Source: Escherichia coli (GTDB lineage Bacteria; Pseudomonadota; Gammaproteobacteria; Enterobacterales; Enterobacteriaceae). From it: a DNA stretch of 64,000 nucleotides. The position numbers and the translations under genes are program-made. The notes beneath the pieces are model-generated. The model was not told where the DNA came from. It did not search any database and was given only the letters and a program-made list of their open reading frames with translations. Below are positions 22,959-57,566 of the stretch, in pieces. How positions within the stretch are numbered: the stretch's first letter is position 1; each line of letters opens with the position of its first letter. The stretch is taken from NCBI RefSeq assembly GCF_022846255.1, contig NZ_AP025682.1; one strand, given 5' to 3'.

Positions 22959-25073
22959 TCAATCAGCCACTAATAGCGGACTAGGGATACCAGATGATGA
23001 AACAAACAGCCCTTTTACGGCACGGGTTGCAGCCACATGCAGTAACGCGCGCTCATTAAATAATGCATCACGCTGTTCAACGGGATCATCGGATGCTAAT
23101 GCTTTTATTTCCGGCACAACGCCTTCGTTAATCCCCACCAGGAACACATACTGGAACTCAAGCCCTTTAATACGGTGCATCGTTGCAACTCGCACGCCTG
23201 GGCGTTCATCGCTGTCACCGCTATCATTGCCTAAATTAAATGTCTCAATTCCGGCGTCATTGAGTGCTGATGCGTAGCGGTCGCAAGCATGTTTAGTACG
23301 CGCAGTAATGCAGATATCCTGAGAACGAACCTGACTCGCCAGCAATGCCTGAATTTGCTTGACGAGTGTTGCAGCCTCTTCTTTGAAATCTGCCGCATGC
23401 GTAATCATGGGCTTTTCCCCGTGCAGTAATGACAAATAATCATTACTGGTATCCGCTTCGCCATCGAGGTTATCAACCTTCACACCAGTTAACAGCCCAA
23501 CAGCAAATTGACGCGTCTCTTCTGTGGTCCGATAGTTAATCTTCAATTTTTTACTGCGACGACCACGGACGTTAATACCACACTGACCAAGAACGACCTT
23601 ATTGCGATAAATACGCTGATGCCCATCCCCGACAATAAACAGATCGTTGGGCGACTCGGGAACCAGGCTGCGAATAAGAGTAAATGCCGGGGCACCGATA
23701 TCTTGAGCTTCATCGACGACAATACTGCTATAAGGTAGTTGGACCTGCTTTTCTTTAAACAGAACAATAGCCTCATGCATGGCATCGCCCATTTCGCGCA
23801 GTTTGGCACGCGCCATTTGTGCTCTGAATTCTTCGAAAACTGGCCAGATTTTCGCCCGTTGAATACGGGATAACGCTGTACCACGTCCAACCCGGCTGAC
23901 TTTGAGGTATTCCTCCCGGGTGTAAACCGCATTTGGCTGGACAACGCGTTGCCACTCTTCAGCATAGAAATTGTCAGGTAGCCCCAGTTCGGCAGGTGCC
24001 TGCTGCAAGGCATAGTTCCAGCATTTACGTCGCCCTTCATCGCTGTCGTATACCACGCGGAAATCATAACCGTGGCGTTTTAGTTGGTCGCTCATCCAGG
24101 CATCAATGTTAACGACGTCAATACGCGCCATCTCTTCTCGCGTACACAACCGCTGGAGATTAGCGCGAATATCTGCCGCCAGGTTACGCGTAAAGGTCGT
24201 GAAAAGTACCTTCTTACCGGGTTTATCTGCCAGACGCTGAGATAACCACCGCGCACGGTGCATTGCAACAACCGTTTTCCCTGTACCTGCACCGCCCAGT
24301 ACTCGTACCGGACCATTAGCGGGCGACTCCACCAGTTTTCGCTGGCTCGGATGCAGAAATACACGCCATTTTTCTAAAGGCGCATTAAGCATCTGCAACA
24401 GCTCCTGTTCATTTTCAACGACATGGAAGCGACGTTTACTTCGTTCAATCGCCTCCATAAAGTCGTTGGTATCAACAGGCTCGTCACGATGATCGTTAAA
24501 CTCTTCCAGCACTTCCTGGTAATCCAGCCCTTCTGCCAGCCAATGCAGGGGTTCCCAGGCTTCTGCTGGCATTATGCTTTCAAGTTGATTAAGCCCGGCT
24601 TCATCGGTAAGCGCCATCACCTGATCAATAAAGACAGGCGGCACACCCAGGGCCAGAATCTGTTCCGCGCTGTAAGCTGCGAAGAGTTTCGGTTTATCTA
24701 GCACCGTTTCCGCCGCCGGTTTGATATAGCTAATATCAATAACCTGAATTGCGCCGGTAACCGGGTGAATTGAACAATCATGCCGCCGCGCCCAGTCGTA
24801 TGCTTCGTCGTGTTTATCCACCCACATCAGCATATACAGGGCACCCTGTTCAGGTTTCAGAACAATGCCGCGATAAGTTTGATCGATTCGCACCGAATGG
24901 ACATTTTTACTGCGCGCATCGTGGATCTTTTCATAGTTAAGTCCATTACTGGTCGGGTCCTGACGGAATTTGGAGATGAATTCCTGCACCTTTTTTTGCT
25001 GTGCTTTTGGGATCCGCGCGAATGCGCCCAGAAAACCATCAGAAAGTGCCACCTTGGGCGTTTGCACCGTCAT
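22959..25073 (-). CDS. UvrD/Rep-like superfamily 1 helicase with a ~200-aa N-terminal domain of unknown function (704 aa)
   Basis: Walker A GGAGTGKT, motif II VVDEAQD, C-terminal UvrD-like motif (MHRIKGLEFQYVFLVG); start overlaps the upstream gene's stop (ATGA). Confidence 0.8.
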   Translation of the reverse strand: MTVQTPKVALSDGFLGAFARIPKAQQKKVQEFISKFRQDPTSNGLNYEKIHDARSKNVHSVRIDQTYRGIVLKPEQGALYMLMWVDKHDEAYDWARRHDCSIHPVTGAIQVIDISYIKPAAETVLDKPKLFAAYSAEQILALGVPPVFIDQVMALTDEAGLNQLESIMPAEAWEPLHWLAEGLDYQEVLEEFNDHRDEPVDTNDFMEAIERSKRRFHVVENEQELLQMLNAPLEKWRVFLHPSQRKLVESPANGPVRVLGGAGTGKTVVAMHRARWLSQRLADKPGKKVLFTTFTRNLAADIRANLQRLCTREEMARIDVVNIDAWMSDQLKRHGYDFRVVYDSDEGRRKCWNYALQQAPAELGLPDNFYAEEWQRVVQPNAVYTREEYLKVSRVGRGTALSRIQRAKIWPVFEEFRAQMARAKLREMGDAMHEAIVLFKEKQVQLPYSSIVVDEAQDIGAPAFTLIRSLVPESPNDLFIVGDGHQRIYRNKVVLGQCGINVRGRRSKKLKINYRTTEETRQFAVGLLTGVKVDNLDGEADTSNDYLSLLHGEKPMITHAADFKEEAATLVKQIQALLASQVRSQDICITARTKHACDRYASALNDAGIETFNLGNDSGDSDERPGVRVATMHRIKGLEFQYVFLVGINEGVVPEIKALASDDPVEQRDALFNERALLHVAATRAVKGLFVSSSGIPSPLLVAD

Positions 25074-28000
25074 TTGTCACCTCCGGACAGATGTTGCAAT
25101 GTATTTTCGTCAATTGGCCCGAATGCTACGTGCCAACCCCTGGTTGTGAATAATGGAATAAATTCTTGATTATCAATAATCAATGCCCATTTTTGTGATG
25201 GCCAGGCGAGATCGGCTTCCGCAATAATTTCCCCCTCATCATTTTGCAATTCGTAGCCGAGAGTCGGCGCAGAGAGAGAATGAGACTGAAGCAACGCGAT
25301 CTCTTCAGCGCTTAATAAGCCAAACTCAATAATCTCAGCCCAACTCTCATCAGTCTCTGGTACTGCCTCTGGCGTTGCCGAAACTTTAGTGTCAACGCTT
25401 TCCTGCGGTAAATGCACGGCTTTACGGCTGGTAAAGGTTATATCCGGCAGGAACTGTAACAGGTTTACCAGTCGCCAGAAGCCATTGAGTCCCGCTTCAT
25501 AACCGTCATCCTGCGTATAGCGATCGTCAAAACAGATATGCAAACGCAGCCAGCTGCGCATTTGTGCGACACTGGTCGTCGGTTTAATGGCTTGTTGTGG
25601 CAACACCGAAGCCAGCTCAATAAATTGCTGCGATGAGTTACAGCTATCGAGTAAACCACCAAAGACAAACGGTTCGTCTGGCAAAAGCTCTGCTAGCCGC
25701 CAGGCTGGCGCGTTTTCCTGCATTTCATAGGCATACTTTTGTTTCGTTCCCGCGTCCTGTGACTTCTTCACATCCAACCACACCCAGGCATGTGCAGCAG
25801 CCATTTTCTGCCATAACTGCGTTCTTCCTCCCGGATCGGCGAGATAATCCAGCAGCAGTGCAAAACTGTTGCGTTCCCGGAACGACGCTTCAAGGGCCGC
25901 AAAGTTGGTATCGTGAAACAGGTTATAAAACTTAGGCTGTTTCATATCCGGGTTATGCCCAAGCCCCAGGACATCCTGAACATGTTTAAGCCCAGGCTCT
26001 TTGAGATCGGCCCACGTGACTGTCCACACCCAGAAATTATCGCTATCCCGAATCGCCTGGCGTTTTTGCACATCCTCTGCGACGCTATTTTTGTGAAACG
26101 CAAAGCCATCAAGGAAAATAGCTACCGGTTTAATGGCATCAGACTGCATAAGCGGATATAGCACGTAATCCGGGCGACAAGGGATCCCCACCGCCTCTTT
26201 AGCGCCTAAATCCACCTGAGCTTTAAGATGCCAGCTCATCATCGGTTCGCTGCGGGTGTTAATAATCCACCCAGCGCCCTGATGCGCGTAACTGCGACTG
26301 ACAATCAGGTTTTTATTTTCTTGCAGGCAGCTAATAAACCGTTTTTCCAGCTCACTGCCCATCATGGCTTCGAGGGAAATGTTTTTGATGGAATCAATTA
26401 CCCGTATCGAATCTCTTGCCTGCAAAATTTTCGCCAGCAAGAGACGCGCCTGATCGCGGGAGACATACTTCATGCGCCCACGGTCACGGTAAGCGTAAAC
26501 GCAACGATAACAACCATCTTTATGCGTATCATGGTTGCAACTGCATTCCACTATCGCCTGATAGGCCAGTTCAAGTAATTTCAGCAAATTGTCGGGAGTG
26601 CGCATCAGCTCTTTAAGAGAACCAGTTCCCCCCGGGACGGTATCGTAAATCACCAGATACTGCCGCCAGGATTCGCCTTCATTTTCCGGCTCGCGGTACA
26701 CAACGCCTTTCAGGTGATCGACATTCCCCTTGAAGTAATGTTTAAGACCTAGCTGGATCGCCGCCCCAAGAGAAGCCTCCACGACACGGTCATTACTGTA
26801 ACTGCTTACCGGGAGCAGAATACGCAACGCTTCTGACTCCAGCTGGCGATAGAGATAGAGATAATCTTCGAACTTCGCCTTTTCGGGTTCCGTGCGATAT
26901 TTGCAGCTCAAATCATGACGGGGTTCATGATCGCGAGGACGCTGTACCATGCCGCACCCGAGGCAAACTTTAAACCCGGTTCGCTTCTTCGCTTCTCCGG
27001 CAATCATCAACTCATTGGCATCATCCGCCATTTTGCCGAAGTTGATATCCCGCAGGGTGACTTTGCTTAAAAATTCAAAACCAAACGGAACTTCGCCTTC
27101 CTCAATCGCGTATGCCGCCGATACATCTTCTTTTTCGAAACTAACCAATAGCTGACGCTGGAAGAAAGCAGGTTCACGGCTGTCGCTCTCGTCGCTGATC
27201 TGGCTATCACGTGCGCTGGCGCGGGCATACACCTGGCGAAGTTTCAGCAGCGTGGTTTTTTGTCCGGCGTCGGCCCACCCCGGTGTGCCACATTTCGGGC
27301 AATATTTATGCTGGTCGCCCGTCTGGTCGATATTTTCGCTGTAGTTACAGTGGCTACAGATACGCCAGTTCTCCGGCTCAGAGACCTTCAGGTCTATCTG
27401 CTCAATTTCAACTTTATGCCCACCGGCATAGAAATTATTCAGCGGAGCCAGCTCAGCCAGCGCCGTTGATGCCGGGCGTTCATATTCGAAAGTGGTGTTT
27501 TGATATTCACGTGCTTCCCCGCCTTCTTTACGCCGCCAGAGCACAGAACGTAACGTAATACCGGCTTCCGGGAAGGCGTAGTTAGGCAGCAGACCTTCAT
27601 CCGTGAGGAAATTCAGCGTCTGCTTATTGTTGATTTGATTGACCAGCGCCATCAGCGCCTGCCGTTCTGAAGTTAACTCGCGCATATCGCTGTCAAAGTT
27701 TTGATCGCGCGGCGCGTTCTCCAGCTTATCGATACTGCGCTTGAGTTTATCGATGCGTGAACGCAGAGATTTGCGATCTTCCACCAGCAGTTTTAACGCC
27801 TCTTCGATACGCTGCACCAGAGAGCGTTGTCCTGGCGCGCCCTGAAGATAAGACAACAACTGTTGGCGAGTTTCTGCGGCAAGATCGGGGAAGATCGCCG
27901 TAAATTGTGCAGCAATCTCCGCATGATGCTGTTCGATATATCTCAGTAAGTTATACGGAAAACCCGATTTACGCCCGAACTCCAGCTCATCCAGCATCTG

Positions 28001-31000
28001 TTTGACGTTTTTACAGATAGCGGATTCTGGTACACCGGTTTTCACCCAGTTATCCATACAAAAAGCTGCCAGCTGGCGTTCGAGAATAGCCGTTGCATTG
28101 AGGAAGACGCCAGGAGCCTGCACCTGGCCCTGCATCATCTCCAGTGGTTCTTCAAAGAAAAACTGATCGTGCGGGTTCCCTTCTGCCACGGTAATGTTTA
28201 ACGCGTTACCATCTTTACGACCGGCGCGACCAATACGCTGCAAGTAGTTGGCCTGAGCAGGTGGGACAGAACAGAGTAAAACGGTGGAAAGATCCCCAAC
28301 GTCGATACCCATCTCCAGCGTCGGTGTTGCCGACAACAGGTTGATATTCCACGGTTGGTTGCCGCGGTAGAACGATTTTTCGGTGGCTTCGCGATCTTCA
28401 CGGCTAAGCAGCCCCGTGTGTTCTGCGCCCTGCACGCGCGCGATGTCCATGTTCTCCCAACGCCAGGTCGCCGTATTGTCGACTTCCTGGTAACGACCTT
28501 CACAACGTAAAGAGAGACAAGGCGCATTACGCCACTGCCACCCTTGATCGGCCGGAGCCCGGACAACCTCACGGCAACATGAGCAATTAAGCTGAACGAC
28601 GTCACGGCTCACCACCAGCGCCGAAGGCACCAGTCCCCAGGCTTCACGCCCTTTGGTGTCAAAATCTTTTACTACTCCGGCTATTTTCAACGCCGTAAAC
28701 AGGCGTCGTAACACCGTTTCCGCAACGCTACTGATAAACAGATTATTGCCGTTACTCAGCGTGCGATTGATCCAATGCTGATACCAACTGGGGTTAGACT
28801 TCGCGCCAATCAGGCGATGGAAACCATTAATTTTTTCAAACGACGCGTAAGCCGGTTTACGCGTTTTCGGACCGATAGAAGGCATATAGCGCGAGGTACG
28901 CTCTTTTTGCGTCATCATAAAGGTCGTGCCATCACGGCGATAACTTTCGAACGCCGGATGCATAACGGCCCCGGCCTGGCGTTGATACCAGATAACCCCC
29001 AGCGCCAGGTGCGCTACCTGCTCGACGCTCACACCGGACATCTCATCACCCAGCTCTTCACAAAGCTGTTGATGCAGGGCGGTAATTGCCGGATTAAAGC
29101 GATCTTTATCCACTCCAGCAACGGCATAACCGGTGGCTTCCAGCGTACGTCCGATACGCGCGCGCAGGGTGAATTCGCTGTACACCTCCCAGTCGAGGCG
29201 CAGGGAAACCAGCTCCGGCAGATCGGAGTTCTCCGCCAGTTTGCCTTCATTTTTCAGTGTCTGATAATCATTCAGCCACTGCATATTTGGTGCGATGAAG
29301 TTCGCTGCAAAATGAGCATCGTCCGGTGAACGTTCACGCGTTTGTTGGCAAACACGCGCCGCGAACGCATCCAGCGGTAATGTCTCTTTTTCGCCAAGAA
29401 CACTGGCGATTTGCCCACGAATCATCAGCGGCCAGGTTCGGGCAGTAAAAAAGCTGGCACGATGCGCGGCGTCTTGTACCGAGTCAGAAAACGTAATCAG
29501 CTTTTTATGTTCGTTGAACTGGCTGCCATAAAGCTGGTGAATCATCACCGCCGACAGACTGGCAGCCCGTGACCCCAGAATCGAAATCCCCTGTTTGCTG
29601 TTGCAGTACGGGCATTCATTAGCAAACTCCAGCTCGTCCTTACGCTCTTTGAGCATATCTGGGATCAGTACCTGCAACAGCTCTGTATGACCACAATGTC
29701 CACACTGGACGCTGGACTGTCGGTTCAGTTTCAGGCAGGTAGGGCACAGTTTCTGGTGTGCGCCACTGACCGCTTTTTCGTTGTTATCCGGGAAAGCAAG
29801 GACGATGGAGCGCCCTTTTTCAAAGAACTGGCGATAAATGCCGTCGAGGTCTGTTTCCAGCTGAACGCTTTGCCCATGACGCAGGCTGGCCCAGCCGGTT
29901 GCGTGGCAGTCACGGCAGTGGATAACCGGCAAATAGTGTTCGCGATCTTCCACCGCCACATCATCGGCAAACACCAGTCTCGGTGTTTTCGCCACGCTGG
30001 CGACCAGACGACGCATCTCACGAAGCCACAACTGGGAGCGCAGTTGCACAAACGGCAGCACCGGGCGCGCTTTCTTCGCCTGGAGACGTTTTTGCCGATC
30101 GTGGTCCGTTTCCGGTACTTCGAGACGTGCCTGCGCGATCAGCGCCAGAATGCTTTGCAGCACGCGTCGGGCATGGTCGGCGCTTTCTGCCAGCATGACC
30201 TGGAGATTTTCCAGACACTCTCGTTCAGAGAGGATCCCGCCTTGCAGATCATGGAGTAAGACATGCATCACGCTGTGGCGGCGTAACAGTGACCCCAGCG
30301 CAATACGCTTTTCACGCCCGTCGTCGCTCTCCAGATCGTCCGGGAGTTGCAAGTCGCTGTCGGGGAACCACAAAGGGATTTGTCCGTTGAGATACGCCAC
30401 CGGGGTAGCGTAACTCTGCGGGTCCAGGGCCGAAGCGACCTCCGGCCCCGGATACTGACTGTACGCAATGGCGTAATCCTGCAAGTACTCCGCTGCCGTG
30501 TAGCGATCTTCGCGAATAACGGCGTCATCGGTAAACGGCTGGTCAAAGATTGTTTTTGCGTAATCGAGCAGTTGCCCCAGTTCGTCGCCGACGGTCGCTG
30601 ATGTCCCGACGCAGGCGAATCGTTGGTTATCTACACCTATGTGATGCTTCAGACGTCGCACCAGACAGGCCAGATCCGACCCTTGCGCGCCATCAAACGT
30701 ATGCAATTCATCCACGACCAGGTAACGCAATGAACCGGGCTGGTTGTAACGCCAGAGCGGCTGATCGCCAGGGCGCATCAGCAGGTAGTCGAGCATTTTG
30801 TAGTTGGTCAACAGGATGTCCGGCGGGCTTTCGCGCAGCGTGTGCTTACAGGTAATGACCTTTTCTGCCGACATTTTTTTGCTGGGTTCGATTTCGCTGT
30901 CGCCGACAAACAGGCCGACGGTCACCTTGCCATGCAGTTGTGGATCGCTGGCGATGGTTTTGGCGAAACGGCTGGCCTGATCGGTTGCCAGGGCGTTCAT

Positions 31001-36345: not shown

Positions 36346-36347
36346 GA

Positions 36348-39206
36348 TTAACCCTCCGCTCCGGTGATAACAGCAATTACCTGAATGTAGGGTTCTTTTT
36401 CAGTCGTCATGGTGTCCTCAATCCATTCAATATAGCTGTCAAAATTGTGTTCTATTTCGCGTTGTCTCTGCTCTTTACGGCTCTGCTTAACTGACAATTG
36501 CTGTTTGTTATCGGCAAAATCCAGCTCAAGTTGGCTCAACTGCCGCCCACGCAAAACGTCCAGCTTTTGCAGATGCTCATTCAGTTGCTGGTTAATGTGC
36601 GTTTCAAACGCATTCCGATCATGGATGAATACCTCCCGGGCATGAGCAATAGCCGCTTCCAGTAAATCCTGCTGGCGCTGGTGATTACGATCTTTACCGC
36701 CGCTGTTAGTCAGCTTGTTACTCAACTGCGGATGACGTTGTAAAAACTCAGCAAATGGCTGACTGCCGATTAGCGATTCACGGTTAAAGCTCACCACTAT
36801 CCACGGGTTAACCATCGGATGTGATTTACGGTTCGGGAATAACCCGGAAAGAATGAAGTGATCTTCATCGGGTTCAAGCAAGTATGGCAGACGGATAACC
36901 GGTGCCTGATGACGACCAAAAGCCGAAGAGATTTTATCGTCCAGCCACTGCACTACCGGGTTGATTTGCCAGAGATACTGCACATCGGGCCAGGCATGTT
37001 GCTCACCGCGAGCGCGTGCAATCGCGTCGGTGATGACGGTTTTATCCTGACTTAAATAGAGCTGCCAGTTCTCCGGCGCGATTTCAGGCGGTAGCTGGTT
37101 GAAGCGGCGGCGTAACTCCTCCGGTGCCACCAGCGACAAGGTATTATCAGGCAAGGTTTCATACTGGATAGTTTGACCACTGGCTTTCAGGTAACCCAAT
37201 GCTCTTTCACAGTACGCCTGTTCGCTGGCAAACAAGCTGGTGTCTGTTTCGGTAACCATTGAGGCATCGCTGGAAACCGCACTGCATATTTCGCCAAACA
37301 GATCATGTTCGGCGCTTTCCGAGACGTTGCTGTTCAGCAGTTGATCAAACAGGCTGGCACCATCATCCTGCATCATGAACTCTGCAACCTGCTCTTCTTC
37401 CTCTTCCTGGGTAAATTTGCCGGTAAACTCCGAACTGTCCCCAATGTTCTTCTGCGCCTGTTCGTCTTTGTTGATCAACACTTCCAGTACGCGCATATCG
37501 CCATTGATCTGTGGTTCGCTGGCCTCGGTAAGCAGATAGCGGATTTGAGGCTGATGTTTTTGCCCATAGCGGTCAATACGCCCGTTACGTTGCTGGAATA
37601 CCATCAACGACCACGGAATATCAAAGTGAATCATTTTGTGGCTAAGGTGATGCAAGTTGATCCCTTCAGATGCCACATCCGAACAAACCAGAAGACGCAA
37701 CGGAGACTGCGTTTTACCAAAGGCTTCTACGGTTTCCATCAACACCGTATCGCCCTGATCGCCGCGCAGCGTGGCGATCTGGTCATCTTTCAATTTCAGA
37801 TCCGCTCGCAGTTGCTGTTCGAGGAACTCCAGCGTTTTAATGCTTTCGGTGAAGATCACCAGGCGATCTTCCGTGTTATTGGCTTTCCAGGCGAGGTCTT
37901 TTCGGATGGTGTCGAGCAGCAACTGGTATTTGCTAAACTGGCTGGCATCAATGTTATTCAGCGCCAACAGCAATGACTCCAGTTCGTTGATCTGGCTCTG
38001 GCTATTATGATCTTTACGGCTCTCAAGACGCTTCAGACGATTCGCCACTACGCTGGCACACGCCATCGGGCTGGAAAATAGCGCTTTTTCGAGGGTTATC
38101 TTGAACAGACGACCTTTGTTAGACTGGGCCTGTTCATCGTCATCATCACGGAACTGACTCTCAACCAGGCGACGGTATGCTTCTTCTTCGGCACCGGATG
38201 CCAGGCGAGTCAGTTTGACAATATTGCGCTCGGGGAACTCGCCAGACATCTGATCTTTCACGTCTTTTTTGAAGCGACGGACAACCAGATTTTTATCGGC
38301 AAAGTCGGCGTATTCATACTCTTTCGGGTTGGCGATCGCCGTCGGGTCAAGCATGTTCATCAGGCTGGCAAAACTTTCAGCTTTACCATCATGCGGCGTT
38401 GCTGAAAGCATAATCAGCGTATCGCTGCGCCCGGCGAGCAGCTTTGCCAGTTTACTGCGTAACGAACTGGTTCCACGTTCTGCGACGTTATGGGCCTCAT
38501 CAATGACAATAATATCCCACCAGGCATTTTCCAGATGGTGACGATATTCAATGTCTTGTTTCAGCGTATCGATGGAGATAATGGTCTTGTCAAAATAGTG
38601 AAACGGGTTGTGGTTGGTAGGGATGCGGTTACGCACCTTTTGTAAACCAGCAGAATCCAGGCGGGTCAATGGGATCGCAAAACGGCTCCAGAACTCCTTC
38701 TGGAATTGTGTCAGCATCGATTTAACCGCCAGAACCAGAATACGTTTTCCGCGCCCACGACGGATCAGTTCCGAAACCAGAATACCGGCTTCCAGCGTTT
38801 TACCCAGACCGACAGCGTCGGCAATGAGTATCCGCTGGCGCGGCTGTGCCAGCGCCATCCGCGTAGGGTCGAGCTGAAACGGCATGGAATCCATCGCCGC
38901 CAGATGACCAAAATGGACTTTACTGTCTGTCGGTACGCGTTGGCGTAACTGACTTTCGATATACAACTGCGCCGCCTGATAATTGGCGGATTCATCTTCC
39001 ACCAAATGCGTTTTTGCGGGATCCAGGATCTCTACTTTTTGTTCCAGTTTGGTCAGAAATAACCCTTCTTTACCGCGCACAAGCTCTGAAATACCATCGC
39101 AGGTCAGCAAATACCCACCATCACCACTGTCATCCGCCCGGCGAATACGCCATTCGGCATCACGAATAACCACCCGCATACCAGGTGCATAATTTTGCTT
39201 ATTCAT
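36348..39206 (-). CDS. SNF2-family helicase/ATPase (DrmD-like), 952 aa
   Basis: SNF2 motifs: DAVGLGKTLEA (motif I), IVIDEAHNV (DEAH box), LSATP, QQRNGRIDRYGQ (motif VI); first gene of a four-gene co-directional cluster. Confidence 0.85.
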   Translation of the reverse strand: MNKQNYAPGMRVVIRDAEWRIRRADDSGDGGYLLTCDGISELVRGKEGLFLTKLEQKVEILDPAKTHLVEDESANYQAAQLYIESQLRQRVPTDSKVHFGHLAAMDSMPFQLDPTRMALAQPRQRILIADAVGLGKTLEAGILVSELIRRGRGKRILVLAVKSMLTQFQKEFWSRFAIPLTRLDSAGLQKVRNRIPTNHNPFHYFDKTIISIDTLKQDIEYRHHLENAWWDIIVIDEAHNVAERGTSSLRSKLAKLLAGRSDTLIMLSATPHDGKAESFASLMNMLDPTAIANPKEYEYADFADKNLVVRRFKKDVKDQMSGEFPERNIVKLTRLASGAEEEAYRRLVESQFRDDDDEQAQSNKGRLFKITLEKALFSSPMACASVVANRLKRLESRKDHNSQSQINELESLLLALNNIDASQFSKYQLLLDTIRKDLAWKANNTEDRLVIFTESIKTLEFLEQQLRADLKLKDDQIATLRGDQGDTVLMETVEAFGKTQSPLRLLVCSDVASEGINLHHLSHKMIHFDIPWSLMVFQQRNGRIDRYGQKHQPQIRYLLTEASEPQINGDMRVLEVLINKDEQAQKNIGDSSEFTGKFTQEEEEEQVAEFMMQDDGASLFDQLLNSNVSESAEHDLFGEICSAVSSDASMVTETDTSLFASEQAYCERALGYLKASGQTIQYETLPDNTLSLVAPEELRRRFNQLPPEIAPENWQLYLSQDKTVITDAIARARGEQHAWPDVQYLWQINPVVQWLDDKISSAFGRHQAPVIRLPYLLEPDEDHFILSGLFPNRKSHPMVNPWIVVSFNRESLIGSQPFAEFLQRHPQLSNKLTNSGGKDRNHQRQQDLLEAAIAHAREVFIHDRNAFETHINQQLNEHLQKLDVLRGRQLSQLELDFADNKQQLSVKQSRKEQRQREIEHNFDSYIEWIEDTMTTEKEPYIQVIAVITGAEG

Positions 39207-39364
39207 CGGTTTTTCTGTCTATTTGGGGCAGTGGCGGTAACGTCATCCTGAAAAATGTGGCGCGGCACACTGCGATAAAAAAGAGGGCCTTAAAGATATC
39301 ATGAAGGCCCCCGGCAAAGTGACAAAATGGGAGGGAATGCGCATAATTTGCGCATGATTTTCAA

Positions 39365-39421
39365 ACAAAAATTATTAAAAAGTGAGCTGGGTCAACTCCC
39401 CTGGAAGATATCCCCAGGGGA
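39365..39421 (-). terminator. Rho-independent terminator downstream of druE
   Basis: tcccctgg-aagatat-ccagggga stem-loop (39397-39421) followed on the minus strand by a T-rich tract (plus-strand A-run 39366-39380). Confidence 0.5.
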
Positions 39422-39429
39422 GCAATTAT

Positions 39430-42400
39430 TTATCCAGCGATAATATAACTCCTAAGGTCATTACCCGGGGCAACAGCTCGCGCTCGCGTGTTTGCCAGCA
39501 GTTCAACTTGCTGCGGTACTCGCAGGGAAAAATCAAAGAAGGTATCTTCAATACAGCGCCAGTAGCTAAGCCCCATGTCGAGCAGGACATAATGCTGACT
39601 GCCATCGCTGAAGGTGACTGTCAGTTCTCGTCCATGCTCCGTACTCTGGTTATCCCCCGTTAACCAGCTAATTGCTCCCGGCCACGCTGGCCCCAGATAT
39701 CCTTCTTCAAGTAAAGTGGTCACAACCTGCTGACGATCTTCCTCATTAAGCCACGCGTTATAGAGAGCGTCGTGTTGGCGAGAGTTGTAATCCAATTTTT
39801 TGACGCAAACAGTGAGGCTGGCGCGTTCCGCCATTCCCTGTCCAACCAGCTCGGTTAAGATTTCACCTAACAAACGCGCCGTGAATGGGCTATTAAGATA
39901 ACGATCGCTGTACTCAACATGCGTTATCTCTTTGTGGCGGGTAAATGCCTGCTTCCAGCCAGCGTGCTGTTGCGTGACTAACGACCAGAAACGCGAACCA
40001 AAACCTTCCAGCGGCCCGTCCAGTTGCTCGCAGAGGTTGATGCGCACCGCCCCGGTGGGTAAGGCGGGCAGTAAATCTTCTGCACTTAAGGTCTGACCCG
40101 AGAAGGTTTTTCCGGACGTTCCTTTAAGTGTCACTACTGGTGAGGACGCACTTTGTCCCCATAATTCACCAGGTGCAACGGTAGCGCTGTCGTCTGCGGC
40201 CCACTGTTGGCTTTGCCCTTCGCGAGTCACCTGCGCAAGCCAGCGTCCCTTTCCTTGCATGAGTTGCGCAGTGGCAATGGATTTCACTTGTAAGCGTCCT
40301 CCCGGCATCGCCGCCAACGCGGAAAGCTGATGTCTGGAGCTATCTGTTAAGTTTGCCAACGGCGTGGCCACCAGCAACTCAACATGCCCACCGGAGGAGG
40401 CAAACTGGAGCAACTCTTTAAATAATGGCCATTGGGCAAAATCCCACTGTTCCTGCGGCCCCGCAAGAACCAGCGAGCAGGAGTCATAAATCTCGCTGTT
40501 CAGGCATTGCGCAATACGTAAACTCAGCGGGTTAGTTTCAACCCGGCTACCATCGCCGAAGTACTGATATTCTGGCGCGAGGTTAAGTCGCTGCAACCGT
40601 ACATTGGTAAGCAGGGTTAATGCATGGTGACGATCTAATCTGTTGACATAATGCTGACTGTCGTAGCTGAGCAAGCAGTGGTGACAGAATTTATCGCAAC
40701 TGCAATCGAGCAATTTTCTGGCGTAATTAAAGACATCAGCCCAATGGTCGATCAATTGCACTGCATAACCTGCACCACCCGCATTATTGTCGTAAATGAA
40801 GATGGAATATCCGGTATAGCCATTGATATCGCGCGCTTGCTGCGTCGTCACGCCCAGCTCAGTATTTTCGATACCCAATTTATGCGCTAACCCTTCACGC
40901 AAAGCGACCGCAAGGGATCGCGCGGCAACCTCATCACGGATCAACAGGCCATTATCATCATTGAGTTGCAGCTCAACCATATCTGTACGACTGCTATACC
41001 CCAACCAAAGATCTTTATGCACATGACCGTGGCACAATTTATTGCTCCCCTGACGATCGTTACTGCCCCCTCGCAACAGGTAATGCGTATTTTCCCTCTC
41101 TGGGTTCTTAAGATTTTCAGGGGTACGCTGGGGTTGATTTTGAGATTCTGCCCGACCACATGAGAGGCAAATTGCGTAGCCGTGCCCAAATTCCCCTTCA
41201 CTGAAGTGGAACAATTCCCCACTATGGCTAAAACGGTAACGTCCTAACCCAGCATCGGGTAAAGAAACCCACACCGAAGACGGTACAAGAACACGTGGAT
41301 CTTTCCAGGGAAGTTGTGCAGGCATGGATACATCATTATGCGCCTGATAACGGATATCTGTCGCAAAACCAACAGGCTGTAAATAACGCTTCACATCAAG
41401 TTGCTGTATATCCGCTTTGCAGTGACTACATTCGACAGGACGGGTAGTACTGGTTGCCCCCGCACCACATTTACGACAATGCCAGAACCACGGAATATGA
41501 TGATCGCCTGACAGCTCCTGCCCGCTGGCAAGTACCTTGCCAAGCATAATGCCCGAGGAACGATATACTTTTCCGCCCAATACCACATCTGCACCTGGAG
41601 CATACTCGCGTAATGCTGTAGGCAAATCACGGCTGGGCAATTTTTCAATACGACGAGAAAAGCTTTCTCCCCCTTCATTAGGGTCAGCCTGAGTAGCTTT
41701 TATTGCGCGACGTTTTTCCAGCTCATCTGCCGTCAGATAATTGAAATTGACGACGCCAACCGGGAAACCATGCCCCGGCAGGAACGCTTCACTAATGAGT
41801 TTAGAAAACAGATATGCACCGCGATAATCACGAAGCTGATAAGCGATGGCTTTACCTGCTGGCGTTTCTTCCCACGCGCTGTTATCCGCCTTCAACGCTT
41901 CGATATTTTCCAACAGTATCGCAAGTTGGCTTCTCCAGCGGATATCAACCTGCTGCATCATTGCTTGTGTGCGGGTCAAGAGCTGGGTTGCCGTCAATGA
42001 CATCAGGACGGTTCCCTGAGTAAGGCGTTTAAGTTTATCCGCCAGCTGATCGGCCTGGTTATTTAACCAATGGAGAAAACGAAGACACTGGCTCTCATCA
42101 CCTTCAAAGAACCATTTGCAACTCAGTTTTGTCGCATCAGGAACTTCAGCTCGTAAAAACAGACCTAAAACCAGGGCATTAACATGTCGTTGAACAATAC
42201 TGCTGCTCCCAAAACGAACCCGTGGCGCACTGGCAGTAGTGTTGAACGCCCAGAGGGGGGCTTTGAATACCTCCATTCCATGCGCCGTGTTTTTACATAA
42301 CGTAATGGCAGCAGATGCACTCTCTCCACGTCGACCCGCGCGGCCTGCACGCTGCAAATAATTTGCCGGAGCTGGAGGAACGTTGTTCATTGCCACCAAA

Positions 42401-45400
42401 CTCATACCACCAATGTCCACCCCCATCTCCATGGTCGTGGAGCAGTTCAGCACATTAACTTTGCCTGACTTAAATTGTTTTTCATTAAACTGGTTCTGCT
42501 CAGGCGTTCTCTGCGCAGAGTGTTCCTCCAGACGATACCAGCTATCTTTCAGGGCCAGTCGGTCGCTGCGAGTAGACCATAATCCTTCCTCGCGGGCATG
42601 TTGAATCAGCGCATTACTTTCCAGCCACTCCAGACGTTCTTCTCGGGCGATTTCTCCACCACCAGACAAACGCCAGTGACGTACAGGAAGCTCAGGCATT
42701 TCAATCAACACTGCTTTTTCAGGTGCAATTTCTTTGCTACCCGGCAAATACGGAGAGTATCCCAGTAACGTGACGTCTAACGCACGTCGAGTATAGGGGC
42801 AACGCCACACTTGCTTTGGACTGTAAAATTCAGCTTGTTGTTTAATATCCAGCTGATAACCCGACTCAAACTGACGTAAGCAGGGTCGAATTGCATCCCA
42901 GACCTCAATCATTAAGTGGTTAACTAACGATTTCCAGTGAGCCTGCTCAGGTTGTATTGCCGGAAAGACTGCAATTAATAGCTTAATGACCCGGTTATAA
43001 TGGCGATCGCGTATTTGTGGCCAAAGTTGATCACGTTTCTGCCCTTTGTTTTTTTTATCTGGACCCTGGAGCATTTTTACCGGGAAACGAGCCCCCATCC
43101 AGCGAGGGTATTGCTCGTTTTCGTAAAAAACGGCACTGTTTTCACGTATAAAGAAATCAAGAGTAATCTTCAATAAATTACGCCATTCCGCTAATTGCTT
43201 ATCGGGATCGGGTAATAATGTCTTCCAGTCCTGCGGGCAGGTTGTAACTTTATCAATAAATGGATAGTGAATGGCTACCAGACCCAGACTTTCGAGGGTC
43301 CAGGCATTTTTAGGGCGGCGACCAAACTCACTGTATAAACAAAAATCTGCAAACTGTTGTTTAGTAAGATCAAGCCCAGACAATTCTTTAAAACTGCCTC
43401 TCATTCTATCGGCAAGGTCCACACTGCCAACCAGCTGTTCAGACAGTGTTTGCCATGACATGGTTTTCTTCTGCTGATTGCCAGAGTTAGCCTGGAGTAT
43501 TTGCATCGCTTCAGCATGATCCGGGCTTAAGGAACTCACCATCGGCTCGATAATTTTAAGTGCCTGAATGTCCGCCGGGCTAAGCTCTTCATTAGCAACC
43601 ATCGCTTTTTTCAGCGCGTCAATAGAGTTTTTTAAAGGAAGGATAGAAAACTGGGTAATAAAACTCTCTAACAATGCGCAGTGTGCCGGGCTGAGCTTTG
43701 CTGATGGCTCATTAATATTGGCCAACTCCTGGTAACAAAGAGCTCGCAACGTCGCTTTATCGGCATCCTGCTGTAAGCGGGCAGAAATGCGGGCAGTGCC
43801 CTGACGTGAATCCGTAAAGGTGAGCAGACGTCGACCATTAAACGGTCCTAACTGCTCTTCTCTTGTCTGCGGTAATGGTGAAAACTCCAGCAGAGTAGGA
43901 ATAATTTCATTTAAAAAAAAGGGCGCGCCAAGTCGAAGCGGACGGAATAAAGGATTATTTTTTCGTTGGGTGTCACCACAGCAAACACAAGCAAAGGAAT
44001 TATTACGTCCCTCACCTCGAGATTCCGGTCTTAACAGGTTTATTTCATAGTGCTTTTGCGCTTCACTATCAATTTTCCCCGCCGTCGTTTCTTCCAGAGA
44101 AATGATATATTTTTCACCATCGATCGCAATCAGACGATCAAATTGAGAGTTATTGTCTAATTCGTCGTTGTCTTCATCTTCAGAATAAACATCTACATCA
44201 AGAGCAAATTCATCCACTTCGGCAGCGGCGGGTTGCGCTACCAACCAGTTCGTTCCATCACCGCGCACCTCCTCTTTGGCAGACAAATAAGCTGAACCAC
44301 ACCCGGAGCAACGTAAAACTTCAAATACCGGCGCACCACAGTCACAATATTGGCGCTGCTCAAACCATACCTGACCAAATGGCCAGTCACTCTGATTTAA
44401 TTCATGCGCTTTATGTGAGCATTGTTTGTTTGAACATGCCCATAGACCCGCCAGTGTTCTGATAAACCCATGCATACGTAATGGCGTAAAAGCCAGTTCA
44501 CCTTCTCGCGATCTCGCCATTAGGTCGAGGAGTTGCAGTAACTCACGGTGATTAATATCTGGCCAGGTTCTTCTGGCAACATTGAGCAACTCACTCAAAC
44601 GTACTGCCTGCCGTCCGGGATGAGTTAACGCCTGACGCAATTGCTGGGCCACACGGTAATGACAAAGCTGTTGGTAAAGATCCTGAGGGCTCAAAGATTT
44701 AAGAGAAGTTAAAGATGTGGGATATTCATGACGAATCAGCGACTCCGATACCCGCGGTATTTGTCGATAGCCGCGAACCACTTTGACATCACGTTCTGTA
44801 ACGCCCGCAAGATCAGCGACAAATTTAGCAAGCTCCTTATTACCTTCAGGAGAGTCTTCACCAATAGTGGCAGAGGTCGCGATAATCTGCACAGGTTTAT
44901 CTGTGCCAGGTCCAACATTGAAAGCCTGCATAACACGACGTAAAAGCAGCGCTAACTCAGCAGCCTGAGAACCAATATAACTATGGGCTTCATCCAGGAC
45001 GATATACTTTAACATCCCCTGAGACTTTTCGATGATTGGGGCATCTTTACGACGAATCAGCATATATTCCAGCATGGTGGTATTCGTCACCATGATGGAA
45101 GGTGGTGCTTCGTAAATGGCTTCCCGACTCAAAGCTTGTTCAGGTACTTTCAACTGATCTTCCTGAACTTCGTATTTGGTATGCCGGGTTTCGCCATTAT
45201 ATAGCGCGAAGCGTATTTTCCCCTTAAATCCGCGCGTCCATTCGCGAAGCCGCTCCTGTTGGCTGTTAATTAATGCATTTAACGGATACAAGAAAATAGC
45301 TTGTGTCCCTGTTAGTGACTGACGGGTCGATTTTTGCTGACGAATAAGATCTTCCAGAACCGGTACCATAAAGCATTCTGTTTTCCCGGATCCCGTACCG

Positions 45401-45753
45401 CTGCTCACTAACAAGGATTTTTTGTCTTCCAGAATCGTTCGCCACGCCGTAAGTTGATGACGAAATGGCACCGGCGCTTTGCTCAATGCATCAACCAGCG
45501 GGCTGGAAATTAGCTTGTCCCGCAAATCCTCCATTGTTTCATCCGCAGGCATCCAGCCGAACGTGCTTTCGAATACCGGGTCTGCAAGCAGTGACCCCTC
45601 CTGACCGGGAGGCTGGAAATATTGTGATTCCAGATAATGAGTCAACGACTTGCTCCGCAATGCCAACTGACTTACCACCGACCTCACCGCGCGCTGATGA
45701 AGCTGATTTAGAAGTGGCGCATAATGCAGTTGCTGAACGTCCATCAATGACAT
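39430..45753 (-). CDS. druE: Druantia DruE-like giant helicase (DEAD/DEAH + DUF1998), 2107 aa
   Basis: Motif I SGTGSGKTECFMVP, motif II VLDEAHSY, motif VI QRAGRAGRRG, Zn-ribbon CxxC clusters, DUF1998-like IFIYDNNAGGAGYA; 10-bp overlap with the upstream 1119-aa gene. Confidence 0.7.
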   Translation of the reverse strand: MSLMDVQQLHYAPLLNQLHQRAVRSVVSQLALRSKSLTHYLESQYFQPPGQEGSLLADPVFESTFGWMPADETMEDLRDKLISSPLVDALSKAPVPFRHQLTAWRTILEDKKSLLVSSGTGSGKTECFMVPVLEDLIRQQKSTRQSLTGTQAIFLYPLNALINSQQERLREWTRGFKGKIRFALYNGETRHTKYEVQEDQLKVPEQALSREAIYEAPPSIMVTNTTMLEYMLIRRKDAPIIEKSQGMLKYIVLDEAHSYIGSQAAELALLLRRVMQAFNVGPGTDKPVQIIATSATIGEDSPEGNKELAKFVADLAGVTERDVKVVRGYRQIPRVSESLIRHEYPTSLTSLKSLSPQDLYQQLCHYRVAQQLRQALTHPGRQAVRLSELLNVARRTWPDINHRELLQLLDLMARSREGELAFTPLRMHGFIRTLAGLWACSNKQCSHKAHELNQSDWPFGQVWFEQRQYCDCGAPVFEVLRCSGCGSAYLSAKEEVRGDGTNWLVAQPAAAEVDEFALDVDVYSEDEDNDELDNNSQFDRLIAIDGEKYIISLEETTAGKIDSEAQKHYEINLLRPESRGEGRNNSFACVCCGDTQRKNNPLFRPLRLGAPFFLNEIIPTLLEFSPLPQTREEQLGPFNGRRLLTFTDSRQGTARISARLQQDADKATLRALCYQELANINEPSAKLSPAHCALLESFITQFSILPLKNSIDALKKAMVANEELSPADIQALKIIEPMVSSLSPDHAEAMQILQANSGNQQKKTMSWQTLSEQLVGSVDLADRMRGSFKELSGLDLTKQQFADFCLYSEFGRRPKNAWTLESLGLVAIHYPFIDKVTTCPQDWKTLLPDPDKQLAEWRNLLKITLDFFIRENSAVFYENEQYPRWMGARFPVKMLQGPDKKNKGQKRDQLWPQIRDRHYNRVIKLLIAVFPAIQPEQAHWKSLVNHLMIEVWDAIRPCLRQFESGYQLDIKQQAEFYSPKQVWRCPYTRRALDVTLLGYSPYLPGSKEIAPEKAVLIEMPELPVRHWRLSGGGEIAREERLEWLESNALIQHAREEGLWSTRSDRLALKDSWYRLEEHSAQRTPEQNQFNEKQFKSGKVNVLNCSTTMEMGVDIGGMSLVAMNNVPPAPANYLQRAGRAGRRGESASAAITLCKNTAHGMEVFKAPLWAFNTTASAPRVRFGSSSIVQRHVNALVLGLFLRAEVPDATKLSCKWFFEGDESQCLRFLHWLNNQADQLADKLKRLTQGTVLMSLTATQLLTRTQAMMQQVDIRWRSQLAILLENIEALKADNSAWEETPAGKAIAYQLRDYRGAYLFSKLISEAFLPGHGFPVGVVNFNYLTADELEKRRAIKATQADPNEGGESFSRRIEKLPSRDLPTALREYAPGADVVLGGKVYRSSGIMLGKVLASGQELSGDHHIPWFWHCRKCGAGATSTTRPVECSHCKADIQQLDVKRYLQPVGFATDIRYQAHNDVSMPAQLPWKDPRVLVPSSVWVSLPDAGLGRYRFSHSGELFHFSEGEFGHGYAICLSCGRAESQNQPQRTPENLKNPERENTHYLLRGGSNDRQGSNKLCHGHVHKDLWLGYSSRTDMVELQLNDDNGLLIRDEVAARSLAVALREGLAHKLGIENTELGVTTQQARDINGYTGYSIFIYDNNAGGAGYAVQLIDHWADVFNYARKLLDCSCDKFCHHCLLSYDSQHYVNRLDRHHALTLLTNVRLQRLNLAPEYQYFGDGSRVETNPLSLRIAQCLNSEIYDSCSLVLAGPQEQWDFAQWPLFKELLQFASSGGHVELLVATPLANLTDSSRHQLSALAAMPGGRLQVKSIATAQLMQGKGRWLAQVTREGQSQQWAADDSATVAPGELWGQSASSPVVTLKGTSGKTFSGQTLSAEDLLPALPTGAVRINLCEQLDGPLEGFGSRFWSLVTQQHAGWKQAFTRHKEITHVEYSDRYLNSPFTARLLGEILTELVGQGMAERASLTVCVKKLDYNSRQHDALYNAWLNEEDRQQVVTTLLEEGYLGPAWPGAISWLTGDNQSTEHGRELTVTFSDGSQHYVLLDMGLSYWRCIEDTFFDFSLRVPQQVELLANTRARAVAPGNDLRSYIIAG

Positions 45754-49103: not shown

Positions 49104-49314
49104 CCTGCCTTCCTTTGATACAATTCGTAACAGGTTACTATCATCATAAAAAAGCTCAACCCGATGAACTCGCTAAAAATGAGACAAATCATTTATATCT
49201 CGAAAAAACTTGTTACAATCATGAGCGCTACACCGAACTTAACCATATAAATTATGTGTGTTTTGTTTATTTTTTAAACAATTACAACTATCCATTATTT
49301 ACACAGGTATCAAA

Positions 49315-50967: not shown

Positions 50968-50973
50968 TCGATC

Positions 50974-51681
50974 ATGGATAAGATTATAGGGAAACAATTA
51001 CCTAAAAAAGATCAAGATAATGAACACTGGGTATCCATGTCAGACCTAATGGCAGGGCTGATGATGGTTTTTATGTTCATATCTATTGCTTATATGCACT
51101 ACGTACGTATTGAAAAAGAAAAAATTAAAGAAGTTGCCGTAGCCTACGAGAATGCTCAGTTACAGCTTTATAATGCTCTGGATATTGAGTTTGCAAAGGA
51201 TTTGCAAGACTGGGATGCAGAGATCGATAAGCAGACTCTGGAGGTTCGATTTAAATCACCGGATGTTTTATTTGGCTTAGGAAGCATAGAGCTTAAACCA
51301 AAGTTTAAACTCATTCTTGACGACTTCTTTCCTCGCTACCTAAAAGTTCTTGATAATTATCAAGAACATATTACTGAAGTCCGCATTGAAGGTCACACAA
51401 GTACTGACTGGACTGGAACAACGAATCCTGATATTGCTTATTTTAATAATATGGCACTATCACAAGGTCGTACACGTGCAGTATTACAATACGTTTATGA
51501 TATAAAAAATATCGCGACACACCAACAATGGGTTAAAAGTAAATTTGCCGCAGTAGGTTATTCATCTGCACATCCCATTCTTGATAAAACCGGCAAGGAG
51601 GATCCTAATCGCTCTCGTCGTGTCACCTTCAAAGTTGTAACAAATGCCGAGTTGCAGATTAGAAAGATTATTCAGGAGTAA
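50974..51681 (+). CDS. zorB: Zorya ZorB (MotB-like with OmpA-type peptidoglycan-binding domain), 235 aa
   Basis: Single N-terminal TM helix (LMAGLMMVFMFISIAYM) and OmpA/MotB-like C-terminal domain (RIEGHTSTDW..., ...LSQGRTRAV..., RRVTF). Confidence 0.8.
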   Translation: MDKIIGKQLPKKDQDNEHWVSMSDLMAGLMMVFMFISIAYMHYVRIEKEKIKEVAVAYENAQLQLYNALDIEFAKDLQDWDAEIDKQTLEVRFKSPDVLFGLGSIELKPKFKLILDDFFPRYLKVLDNYQEHITEVRIEGHTSTDWTGTTNPDIAYFNNMALSQGRTRAVLQYVYDIKNIATHQQWVKSKFAAVGYSSAHPILDKTGKEDPNRSRRVTFKVVTNAELQIRKIIQE

Positions 51682-51684
51682 GAG

Positions 51685-57554: not shown

Positions 57555-57566
57555 CTCATATCAACC

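Follow-up and report, generated by a model that had tools for sequence, protein, structure and literature searches.

A 64,000-nt stretch of Escherichia coli DNA (assembly GCF_022846255.1, contig NZ_AP025682.1; hereafter the window) carries, in adjacent operons of the same orientation, two genes for DruE-like helicases of 2113 and 2107 aa, and the question raised by this locus is whether the two are duplicates of each other, parts of a single six-gene system, or components of distinct systems. We hold it to be highly probable that the region contains two separate, adjacent and co-directional anti-phage systems, Druantia III-A and ARMADA II, a joint reading that includes the mechanism and the synergy considered below. 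Druantia type III-A (DruH and DruE) occupies positions 39430-49103, and ARMADA type II, composed of the SNF2 helicase ArmA, the methyltransferase ArmB, the YprA-family helicase-nuclease ArmC and the UvrD-like helicase ArmD, occupies positions 22959-39206. Each system is centred on a giant YprA-family (MrfA-like, DUF1998/MZB-containing) SF2 helicase with a fused C-terminal nuclease. Together with a divergent Zorya II system (49258-52788) they make up the Zorya-Druantia-ARMADA island, which is O-island 172 (OI-172) of E. coli O157:H7. The features are the following.

22959..25073, minus strand: armD, UvrD/GajB-like helicase, 704 aa (Pfam, PADLOC)
25070..31411, minus strand: armC, ARMADA II YprA-family helicase-nuclease, 2113 aa (reference identity, Pfam)
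25073..25354, minus strand: terminal domain of armC, aa ~2020-2113, homologous to the ZorE C-terminal extension
26000..26317, minus strand: Vsr-like PD-(D/E)xK nuclease domain of armC, aa ~1699-1804
31411..36345, minus strand: armB, large PglX/type IIG-like N6-adenine DNA methyltransferase, 1644 aa (PADLOC)
31996..33348, minus strand: hypervariable segment of armB, aa ~1000-1450 (comparison of five alleles)
36348..39206, minus strand: armA, SNF2/RapA/BrxHII-like helicase, 952 aa (PADLOC, NCBIfam)
39207..39429, minus strand: druE-armA spacer, 223 bp, with hairpins and a T-run just past the druE stop
39430..45753, minus strand: druE, Druantia III-A YprA-family helicase-nuclease, ORF of 2107 aa (PADLOC, phmmer, Pfam)
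45744..49103, minus strand: druH, Druantia III partner of the YjiT/STY4851 family, 1119 aa (PADLOC, NCBIfam, RefSeq)
49258..52788, plus strand: zorA-zorB-zorE, Zorya type II, divergent from druHE and third system of the conserved island

Identity of the systems in the island

DruH matches the PADLOC profile DruH3 (PDLC00041) end to end (2538 bits, residues 3-1119) and the NCBIfam family YjiT_fam (970 bits, cutoff 150). A preliminary description of the sequence had regarded this protein as an unannotatable partner in a Druantia III-like pair; the pairing stands, and the protein can be annotated as DruH. Its gene lies directly upstream of druE on the same strand, the two ORFs overlapping. DruE matches DruE3 (PDLC00037) with 2179 bits over residues 9-2105, and chain 9tu7_Y of a solved structure with 4861 bits over residues 3-2107 (phmmer); judged from its sequence, it is essentially identical to the protein in that cryo-EM structure. 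Pfam locates Helicase_C at residues 1072-1143 and MZB at 1615-1694. With respect to the Druantia III-A systems of the E. coli cluster (structures 9tu7-9tuc), the window proteins align with the type III profiles over their full length and nothing of substance differs, the only ambiguity being the druE start codon, 45753 or 45744. The start at 45744 (2104 aa) is more likely than that at 45753 (2107 aa); its ATG and the druH stop overlap in the sequence TGATG, a GGAG lying 10 nt upstream, and it is the RefSeq start and agrees with the residue numbering of PMC13192584.

The other operon agrees in its four genes, their order and their neighbours (Druantia III and Zorya II) with the ARMADA type II system of E. 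coli NCTC 12900, ATCC 8739 and EDL933 (PMC12458937; bioRxiv 10.1101/2025.09.22.677730); the four genes encode, in order, a BrxHII/RapA-like SNF2 helicase, a PglX-like methyltransferase, a YprA helicase and a GajB-like UvrD helicase. It is the DISARM-related SNF2/methyltransferase operon in which the preliminary description had placed the second helicase. The proteins of O157:H7 are 100% (ArmA, WP_001041505.1), 99.5% (ArmC, WP_000937974.1, which represents ARMADA type II in PMC12458937) and 99.4% (ArmD) identical to the window copies. The ArmB allele alone differs, its divergence being all in aa ~1000-1450. ArmC contains DEAD (84-278), Helicase_C (993-1066) and MZB/DUF1998 (1549-1638) domains in Pfam, and its predicted C-terminal nuclease domain is of the Vsr-type PD-(D/E)xK kind that characterises ARMADA II, with D1748, D1768, G1769, H1773, D1780 and R1784 invariant across 20 diverse homologs. 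ArmB scores 944 bits against REase_MTase_IIG and 192 bits against DrmMI (PADLOC). In ArmD, UvrD-helicase (241-490) and UvrD_C (509-693) are found by Pfam and GajB scores 123 bits in PADLOC; residues 1-240 have no Pfam match, and a RelE-like N-terminal domain has been described (PMC12458937). Start and stop codons of neighbouring arm genes overlap or stand 2 nt apart, the armD start overlapping the armC stop as ATGA. The Zorya II genes were identified by ZorA2 (1001 bits), ZorB2 (346 bits) and ZorE2 (585 bits) in PADLOC, and RefSeq gene names in a near-identical locus (L001) agree for Zorya II and druH.

No ARMADA-named match for the window proteins was obtained from PADLOC v2 or NCBIfam release 20, and RefSeq labels proteins of this type as generic helicases, DruE appearing in some records as 'motility-regulating DEAH-box RNA helicase'. 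Annotation resources thus trail the literature, and the main worth of the present analysis lies in correct labelling. Work from 2025-2026 has described and tested how the two systems are related, co-occur and synergise in E. coli, and these points are already known, since it has been published that ArmC is closest to DruE, that each system defends alone, and that deletions reveal synergy. To this our results add two small points, a hypervariable, specificity-like segment in ArmB and the homology of the ArmC terminus to the ZorE extension.

Independence, linkage and synergy

The preliminary description had raised the possibility of a single six-gene supersystem, in which druH-druE-armA-armB-armC-armD would form one obligate transcription unit or complex whose halves are inactive alone. 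All six genes are indeed co-directional, and the junction fragment between the operons is conserved in 521 of 5426 complete E. coli genomes, with the ARMADA operon in 520 and DruHE in 505; moreover, the two halves have been published to be co-mobilised on different mobile elements, and synergy between Druantia III and ARMADA II is strong against 22 phages in EDL933. Nevertheless, an obligate supersystem is contradicted by the published plasmid reconstitution of each system alone: plasmid-borne ARMADA II protects BL21-AI against 13 of 80 phages, and DruHE alone gives protection in MG1655. Strains in which a single system has been deleted retain the spectrum of the remaining one. The spacer also argues against one unit, since it contains a terminator-like signal (39398-39384, minus strand) and, nearer armA, a promoter-like site (39325-39298, minus strand) with palindromes upstream of armA, these signals being consensus matches only; the published ARMADA clone carried native promoters and was active.

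The distribution of the systems points in the same direction. The OI-172 preprint counted 426 strains with all three systems and 41 with one or two, and it lists 17 E. coli strains that carry ARMADA II alone and one that carries Druantia III alone. In eight distant ArmC loci (38-50% identity) ArmD stays adjacent, and DruH and DruE are absent from the retrieved sequence; the ARMADA gene order is the same in the distant loci L007, L012 and L013. A six-gene obligate system is very improbable. The check that had been proposed, phage challenge of single and double deletion strains, had already been published, and it showed phage-specific synergy together with independent activity of each system. 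Two systems that act independently are thus the preferred reading, in which the near-perfect linkage in E. coli and the strong synergy leave room for some direct coupling between them.

Relationship of ArmC to DruE and to other helicases

The two large ORFs, 25070..31411 (2113 aa) and 39430..45753 (2107 aa), both on the minus strand, are homologous, as had been proposed from their related motifs. All of these motifs were located: TGTGSGKTECFMFP at aa 104 of ArmC and its counterpart SGTGSGKTECFMVP at aa 118 of DruE, IYPMNALATDQ (ArmC aa 135) and LYPLNALINSQ (DruE aa 155), QRIGRAGR (ArmC aa 1058) and QRAGRAGR (DruE aa 1134), and DxxxGGxG (ArmC aa 1590, DruE aa 1655). BLASTP aligned 211 aa of the RecA1 regions at 34% identity (E 4e-30) and 719 aa from RecA2 to DUF1998 at 23% (E 6e-26), a similarity far beyond chance. 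Pfam places Helicase_C and MZB collinearly in the two proteins, the common layout being RecA1, insertion, RecA2, OB/CON and MZB. ArmC is also closer to DruE than to unrelated SF2 helicases, since among solved structures its best match was DruE (9tu7, 166 bits), against 74 bits for MrfA/YprA, 41 for Lhr and 28 for a DEAD-box protein, and in PADLOC it scored 348 bits with DruE3 and 324 with DruE1, far above DpdJ (86) and DrmA (50). Bacillus subtilis MrfA/YprA (PDB 6znp), matched by ArmC with 74 bits and by DruE with 71, shares the SF2 core and the MZB/DUF1998 zinc module that define the family, but it has 751 aa and a role in DNA repair, and has neither the ~700-aa insertion nor C-terminal nuclease domains.

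The module duplication that had been suggested does not hold in the sense of a recent event, that is, a local duplication of druE giving tandem paralogs followed by recruitment of DISARM genes. The genes are adjacent, on the same strand, near-equal in length and collinear in domain order; however, their identity of just 23-34% is confined to the helicase and MZB parts, and no significant similarity was found between the ~700-aa insertions that separate the RecA lobes or between the C-terminal tails of ~420-460 aa. The nuclease folds differ as well, being tandem PLD-like in DruE, as published, and Vsr-like PD-(D/E)xK in ArmC. Published structures of essentially the same DruE protein show two PLD-like domains at the C-terminus, one inactive and one active; in the window protein no PLD was matched by Pfam and no HxK(x)4D motif was found in the tail. 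The contribution of this region is disputed, two preprints reporting DNA cleavage and nuclease-dependent defence and one reporting that it is dispensable for defence. In addition, the ArmC tail used as query matched 937 clusters (formed at 50% identity) with E<=0.001, many being ~2100 aa long, so that ArmC-type proteins are a large and diverse family of their own, which in other taxa occurs without Druantia in the sequence retrieved. In the published tree ARMADA forms a separate clade that branches deeper than Druantia and apart from DISARM, and ArmC, the nearest relative of DruE, is not nested among the Enterobacterial DruE proteins. Recent tandem paralogy is therefore scarcely credible; the homology of DruE and ArmC is ancient, and the two belong to sister clades.

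It could also be considered that armABCD is a class 1 DISARM system (composed of DrmD, DrmMI, DrmA, DrmB and DrmC) with drmA, drmB and drmC fused into one gene, since a DUF1998-type helicase has as neighbours a large N6-adenine methyltransferase and an SNF2 helicase, the best family match of ArmA is DrmD (333 bits, against 201 for BrxHII, in PADLOC), ArmB matches DrmMI, and the OI-172 preprint draws an analogy to a DrmA-DrmB-DrmC fusion; but this is extremely improbable, given that ArmA, with ~350 bits (349.7) for NCBIfam DISARM_DrmD (RapA, 133 bits), stays below the curated cutoff of 610 and thus the equivalog level, that ArmC favours DruE3 over DrmA, that DISARM has separate DrmA (helicase), DrmB (DUF1998) and DrmC (PLD nuclease) in place of one polypeptide for helicase and DUF1998, that no PLD gene lies within the arm operon, whose nuclease is the fused Vsr-like domain, that the UvrD-like ArmD is an extra essential component, and that the published phylogeny sets ARMADA apart. 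Overall, what the preliminary description observed is confirmed, and what it concluded is partly supported.

Possible mechanisms and shared domains

Druantia III defence requires both genes, as published for the orthologs of E. coli ATCC 8739 and EDL933, and near-identical DruE proteins have been described to load as dimers onto ssDNA-containing ends or forks and to unwind 3'-to-5'. DruH now has structures and assigned activities, but the three published accounts conflict, describing it as an exonuclease, as an ATP-inhibited ssDNA binder, or as a protein with no identifiable catalytic domain; it may act as an ssDNA-binding or exonucleolytic sensor and primer. ARMADA II provides direct, non-abortive defence that depends on all four genes, on the NPPW motif in ArmB and on the ATPase sites in ArmA, ArmC and ArmD. 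The residues required (ArmA K136 and D236; ArmB N971; ArmC K110 and D234; ArmD K266) and those whose mutation has a partial effect (ArmB G605 and ArmD D454) (PMC12458937) are all eight present at identical positions in the window proteins, N971 within the NPPW motif. No methylation motif, substrate or nuclease activity of ARMADA II is reported in the published accounts examined.

When the window ArmB was compared with five other E. coli alleles, agreement with the window residue fell to 0.45-0.85 per 50-aa block in aa ~1000-1450 and was >=0.94 per block outside it; in the same comparison ArmA, ArmC and ArmD were 99.3-100% identical. Identity of ArmB to the O157:H7 allele is 93.9%, and over the five alleles it ranges across 84-95%. 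G+C dips where the segment lies, and the OI-172 preprint located most of the diversity of the island within armB. From its sequence and variability this segment is probably a specificity-domain-like target-recognition region. Because of it, and because an armB deletion strain has been published to be viable yet defenceless, ArmB could recognise a sequence motif and mark self DNA in a BREX/DISARM-like manner; unmarked phage DNA would then be unwound and cut by ArmA, ArmC and ArmD, which would translocate along it. The synergy with Druantia III might arise from both systems acting on common ssDNA-containing replication or recombination intermediates and not from one complex.

ArmC ends in ~95 residues that share homology with the extension at the C-terminus of ZorE and have a Vsr-like fold with no evident canonical catalytic motif. 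A 2026 preprint described this extension as enriched in 'Druantia-associated' ZorE and found no nuclease family to which it could be assigned; the domain shared by ArmC and ZorE is not mentioned in the published accounts examined. It is a tentative proposal, which we consider unlikely though worth stating, that the three systems are tied by this domain and that, separately, the ArmB segment makes ARMADA II a system of epigenetic discrimination that is motif-specific and switches between alleles. Both this variable segment of ArmB and the domain common to ArmC and ZorE offer handles on the mechanism of ARMADA II and on its synergy with Druantia III. If the link had a function, the extension of ZorE would be a module of ARMADA type; it could be a domain, shared by both proteins, for docking or for recognising DNA structure, which directs them to the same intermediates or partner, and part of the reported Zorya-Druantia association would really be one between Zorya and ARMADA.

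Identity of the two operons

The two operons are made up of six large co-directional genes, all located on the minus strand in the ORF listing of the window:

45744-49103, minus strand, druH, 1119 aa
39430-45753, minus strand, druE, 2107 aa
36348-39206, minus strand, armA, 952 aa
31411-36345, minus strand, armB, 1644 aa
25070-31411, minus strand, armC, 2113 aa
22959-25073, minus strand, armD, 704 aa

The upstream pair is a Druantia type III-A system. The 1119-aa protein is matched end to end by PADLOC DruH3 (2538 bits) and also by NCBIfam YjiT_fam (970 bits), PADLOC DruE3 covers the 2107-aa protein end to end (2179 bits), and the latter is essentially the same protein as the solved chain 9tu7_Y (4861 bits). 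As the start of DruE, the ATG at 45744 is likelier than 45753, since it overlaps the druH stop in a TGATG and has a GGAG 10 nt upstream; it is also the RefSeq start, and in one structural preprint the residues are numbered accordingly. The product name given to DruE in some RefSeq genomes, 'motility-regulating DEAH-box RNA helicase', is probably misleading: no ssRNA binding by DruE was found in a 2026 preprint, and fliC and motility were unchanged in a druE deletion.

The downstream operon was named ARMADA type II (ArmA, ArmB, ArmC, ArmD) in September 2025 (PMC12458937). The type II representative of that paper, WP_000937974.1, is encoded in the O157:H7 locus L003, to which ArmA, ArmC and ArmD of the window are 100%, 99.5% and 99.4% identical, respectively, and all eight residues mutated there are present at the same positions in the window proteins (ArmA K136 and D236; ArmB G605 and N971 of NPPW; ArmC K110 and D234; ArmD K266 and D454). 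ArmA is a DrmD- and BrxHII-like SNF2 helicase (PADLOC, NCBIfam) scoring under the NCBIfam DrmD cutoff (350 vs 610 bits), ArmB is a large type IIG/PglX-like methyltransferase (type IIG family 944 bits, DrmMI 192 bits), and ArmD is a UvrD/GajB-like helicase by profile matches; residues 1-240 of ArmD had no Pfam match, so that the RelE-like N-terminal domain was not recovered by this means. The DrmD/BrxHII-like helicase and the DrmMI-matching methyltransferase bear out the DISARM-like character that the preliminary description had read in this operon; membership of the arm operon in DISARM itself was rejected.

DruE and ArmC, homologous helicases of two systems

The observation that DruE and ArmC are related helicases of about 2100 aa is confirmed, the motifs quoted for them being all found in the expected places. 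BLASTP aligned the two proteins in two stretches, the RecA1 lobe (211 aa at 34% identity, E 4e-30) and the part spanning RecA2 and the DUF1998/MZB module (719 aa at 23%, E 6e-26), with nothing significant in the ~700-aa inter-RecA insertion or in the C-terminal tails. The order of the Pfam domains is the same:

ArmC: DEAD 84-278, Helicase_C 993-1066, MZB 1549-1638
DruE: Helicase_C 1072-1143, MZB 1615-1694

Their mutual similarity also exceeds that to generic SF2 helicases. DruE profiles match ArmC in part only (DruE3 348 bits, DruE1 324 bits), followed by DpdJ (86 bits) and, barely, DrmA (50 bits); among solved structures, DruE scored 166 bits, a second large helicase 92, MrfA/YprA 74, Lhr 41 and DEAD-box proteins 28 at most. 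A recent duplication as the origin of the pair was rejected: the proteins share little identity, their tails fold differently, and ArmC-type proteins make up a large separate family, with 937 clusters (50% identity level) retrieved by the ArmC tail at E<=0.001, many of ~2100 aa.

A single six-gene supersystem had been suggested as an alternative. Among 5426 complete E. coli genomes, ARMADA was present at a query coverage of at least 80% in 520 and DruHE in 505, and a 5-kb fragment across the druE-armA junction was found in 521, so that the two operons are almost always together; according to the preprint on O-island 172 of EDL933, all three systems occur in 426 strains and one or two of them in another 41. 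Yet the link is not obligate, as published experiments settle: plasmid-borne ARMADA II protects alone, all four genes being needed, and protection by DruHE alone has also been published. The single and double deletions with phage challenge that had been proposed are available too, in ATCC 8739 and EDL933, and gave overlapping spectra with phage-specific synergy. An obligate six-gene system was thus rejected, also on account of eight loci from seven distant ArmC homologs (38-50% identity), in whose available sequence (up to 10 kb per side, less on short contigs) no DruH or DruE was found. ArmD adjoins ArmC in all eight; upstream of ArmC, three carry ArmA and ArmB and a fourth ArmB alone.

Several of these loci (L008, L009/L010, L011) have ArmC-ArmD without a preceding ArmA-ArmB, and an HSP70-like protein, a 684-aa helicase-like protein or a PIN toxin-antitoxin pair is encoded upstream. 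Such loci, several of them on short contigs, may represent variants with an ArmCD core that depart from the 'strict gene order' of type II. In another distant locus, L006, a SACS/NOV_C gene lies between ArmB and ArmC, and ZorB of L011 has a GTG start.

The 223-bp spacer between druE and armA (39207-39429) has hairpins and a T-run on its druE side and a promoter-like site on its armA side, all as consensus matches only. It also holds the perfect palindromes CCCCTGG...CCAGGGG, GGGCCTT...AAGGCCC and ATGCGCA-TAATT-TGCGCAT, which could be candidate terminator and operator sites.

Terminal domain of ArmC and variable segment of ArmB

Three protein segments deserve separate consideration:

25073-25354, minus strand, ArmC terminal domain, aa 2020-2113 (last ~95 residues)
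52519-52785, ZorE C-terminal extension, aa 279-367
31996-33348, minus strand, ArmB hypervariable segment, aa ~1000-1450

The terminal domain of ArmC, predicted to adopt a Vsr-like fold, is homologous to the C-terminal extension of ZorE from the same island, judging from their alignment (40% identity over 57 aa, E 2e-8), from matches of the domain to PADLOC ZorE2 (E 5.8e-9) and NCBIfam ZorE (E 3e-4), and from the fit of ZorE tails into an alignment of diverse ArmC terminal domains. Pfam gave no match to the ArmC tail, whether searched as a single sequence or as an alignment of 20. The PADLOC label of the ZorE2 match, 'HNH endonuclease', is misleading, since ArmC matches profile positions 282-357, in the extension, whereas the HNH-related part of ZorE (a PADLOC homing endonuclease match) is at ~192-258. 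According to the Druantia-Zorya preprint of 2026, 90% of Druantia-associated ZorE have the extension, whose assignment to a nuclease family did not succeed; that preprint makes no mention of ArmC, nor does the ARMADA paper of ZorE. A long-form ZorE is encoded 7 kb away from an ArmC-ArmD pair on the metagenomic contig Ga0645779_04264, with no DruH or DruE within the 27 kb visible, a single example that we regard as a lead and not as a finding.

ArmB is nearly invariant across six E. coli alleles (at least 94% conserved) except at aa ~1000-1450, just past NPPW, where per-block agreement with the window allele drops to 0.45-0.85, the rest of the operon being 99-100% conserved among the same alleles. 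A G+C dip falls on the same segment, which resembles an exchangeable target-recognition region able to switch specificity. Neither methylation nor specificity is taken up in the two ARMADA papers. A strain lacking armB is viable and defenceless. BREX pglX mutants are likewise viable but defenceless. From the variable segment and the deletion phenotype, we infer that ArmB provides motif recognition and self-marking in a BREX/DISARM-like manner.

Island context and possible basis of synergy

With zorA, zorB and zorE (Zorya type II) at 49258-52788, divergent from druH, the block is the Zorya-Druantia-ARMADA array of O-island 172 of EDL933. In the best-matching annotated genome (L001) it lies whole inside a defence island adjoining tRNA-Leu, together with a decayed integrase, BrxR, a Wadjet-like cluster, a phosphorothioate-DNA-binding endonuclease and other nucleases. 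In the window, direct repeats derived from nanM/nanS (18650-19166 vs 52979-53495, 94% over 517 nt; 20692-20875 vs 53490-53661, 82% over 184 nt) flank a ~32-kb block with the three systems, the right-hand copy being a truncated nanM joined to a nanS-end-like piece, which suggests that the block was inserted or exchanged via recombination in the nan region of the leuX island. Directly downstream of armD, on the opposite strand and beside a transposase remnant, a 216-aa protein (21795-22445) annotated 'uracil-DNA glycosylase family' had no PADLOC or NCBIfam match. Further defence genes, including an HNH endonuclease, lie to the right of Zorya (53615-63909):

54334-55263, phosphorothioated-DNA-binding restriction endonuclease (NCBIfam, 438 bits)
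55374-56372, PDDEXK/NucS-like nuclease
56499-57554, JetD-domain protein of a Wadjet-like cluster
57567-62003, 1478-aa coiled-coil protein of the same cluster, which has two further ORFs

The mechanism of Druantia III is drawn here from four 2026 preprints. DruE is a dimer that unwinds DNA in the 3'-to-5' direction, loading on ssDNA-containing ends or forks; DNA cleavage dependent on its PLD is described by two groups, and one finds the PLD domains dispensable for defence. Accounts of DruH differ (an ssDNA-binding protein inhibited by ATP, a 3' exonuclease priming DruE, or a sensor). ARMADA II is known from genetics only, which indicates a direct and non-abortive defence dependent on the ATPase sites and on the NPPW motif. 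In analogy to the model published for Druantia-Zorya, synergy could arise from DruE and ArmC acting as helicase-nucleases on shared ssDNA-containing intermediates. DruE-ArmC heterodimers were considered as another source of the synergy; the insertion region, which in one DruE structure contains the dimerising Stalk domain, shows no sequence similarity between the two proteins.

The preliminary description recognised both the homology and the DISARM-like character correctly, and its whole content, the proposed experiments included, is already known from work published since. Three points stand as leads: the specificity segment of ArmB, the domain that ArmC shares with ZorE, and how ARMADA works.
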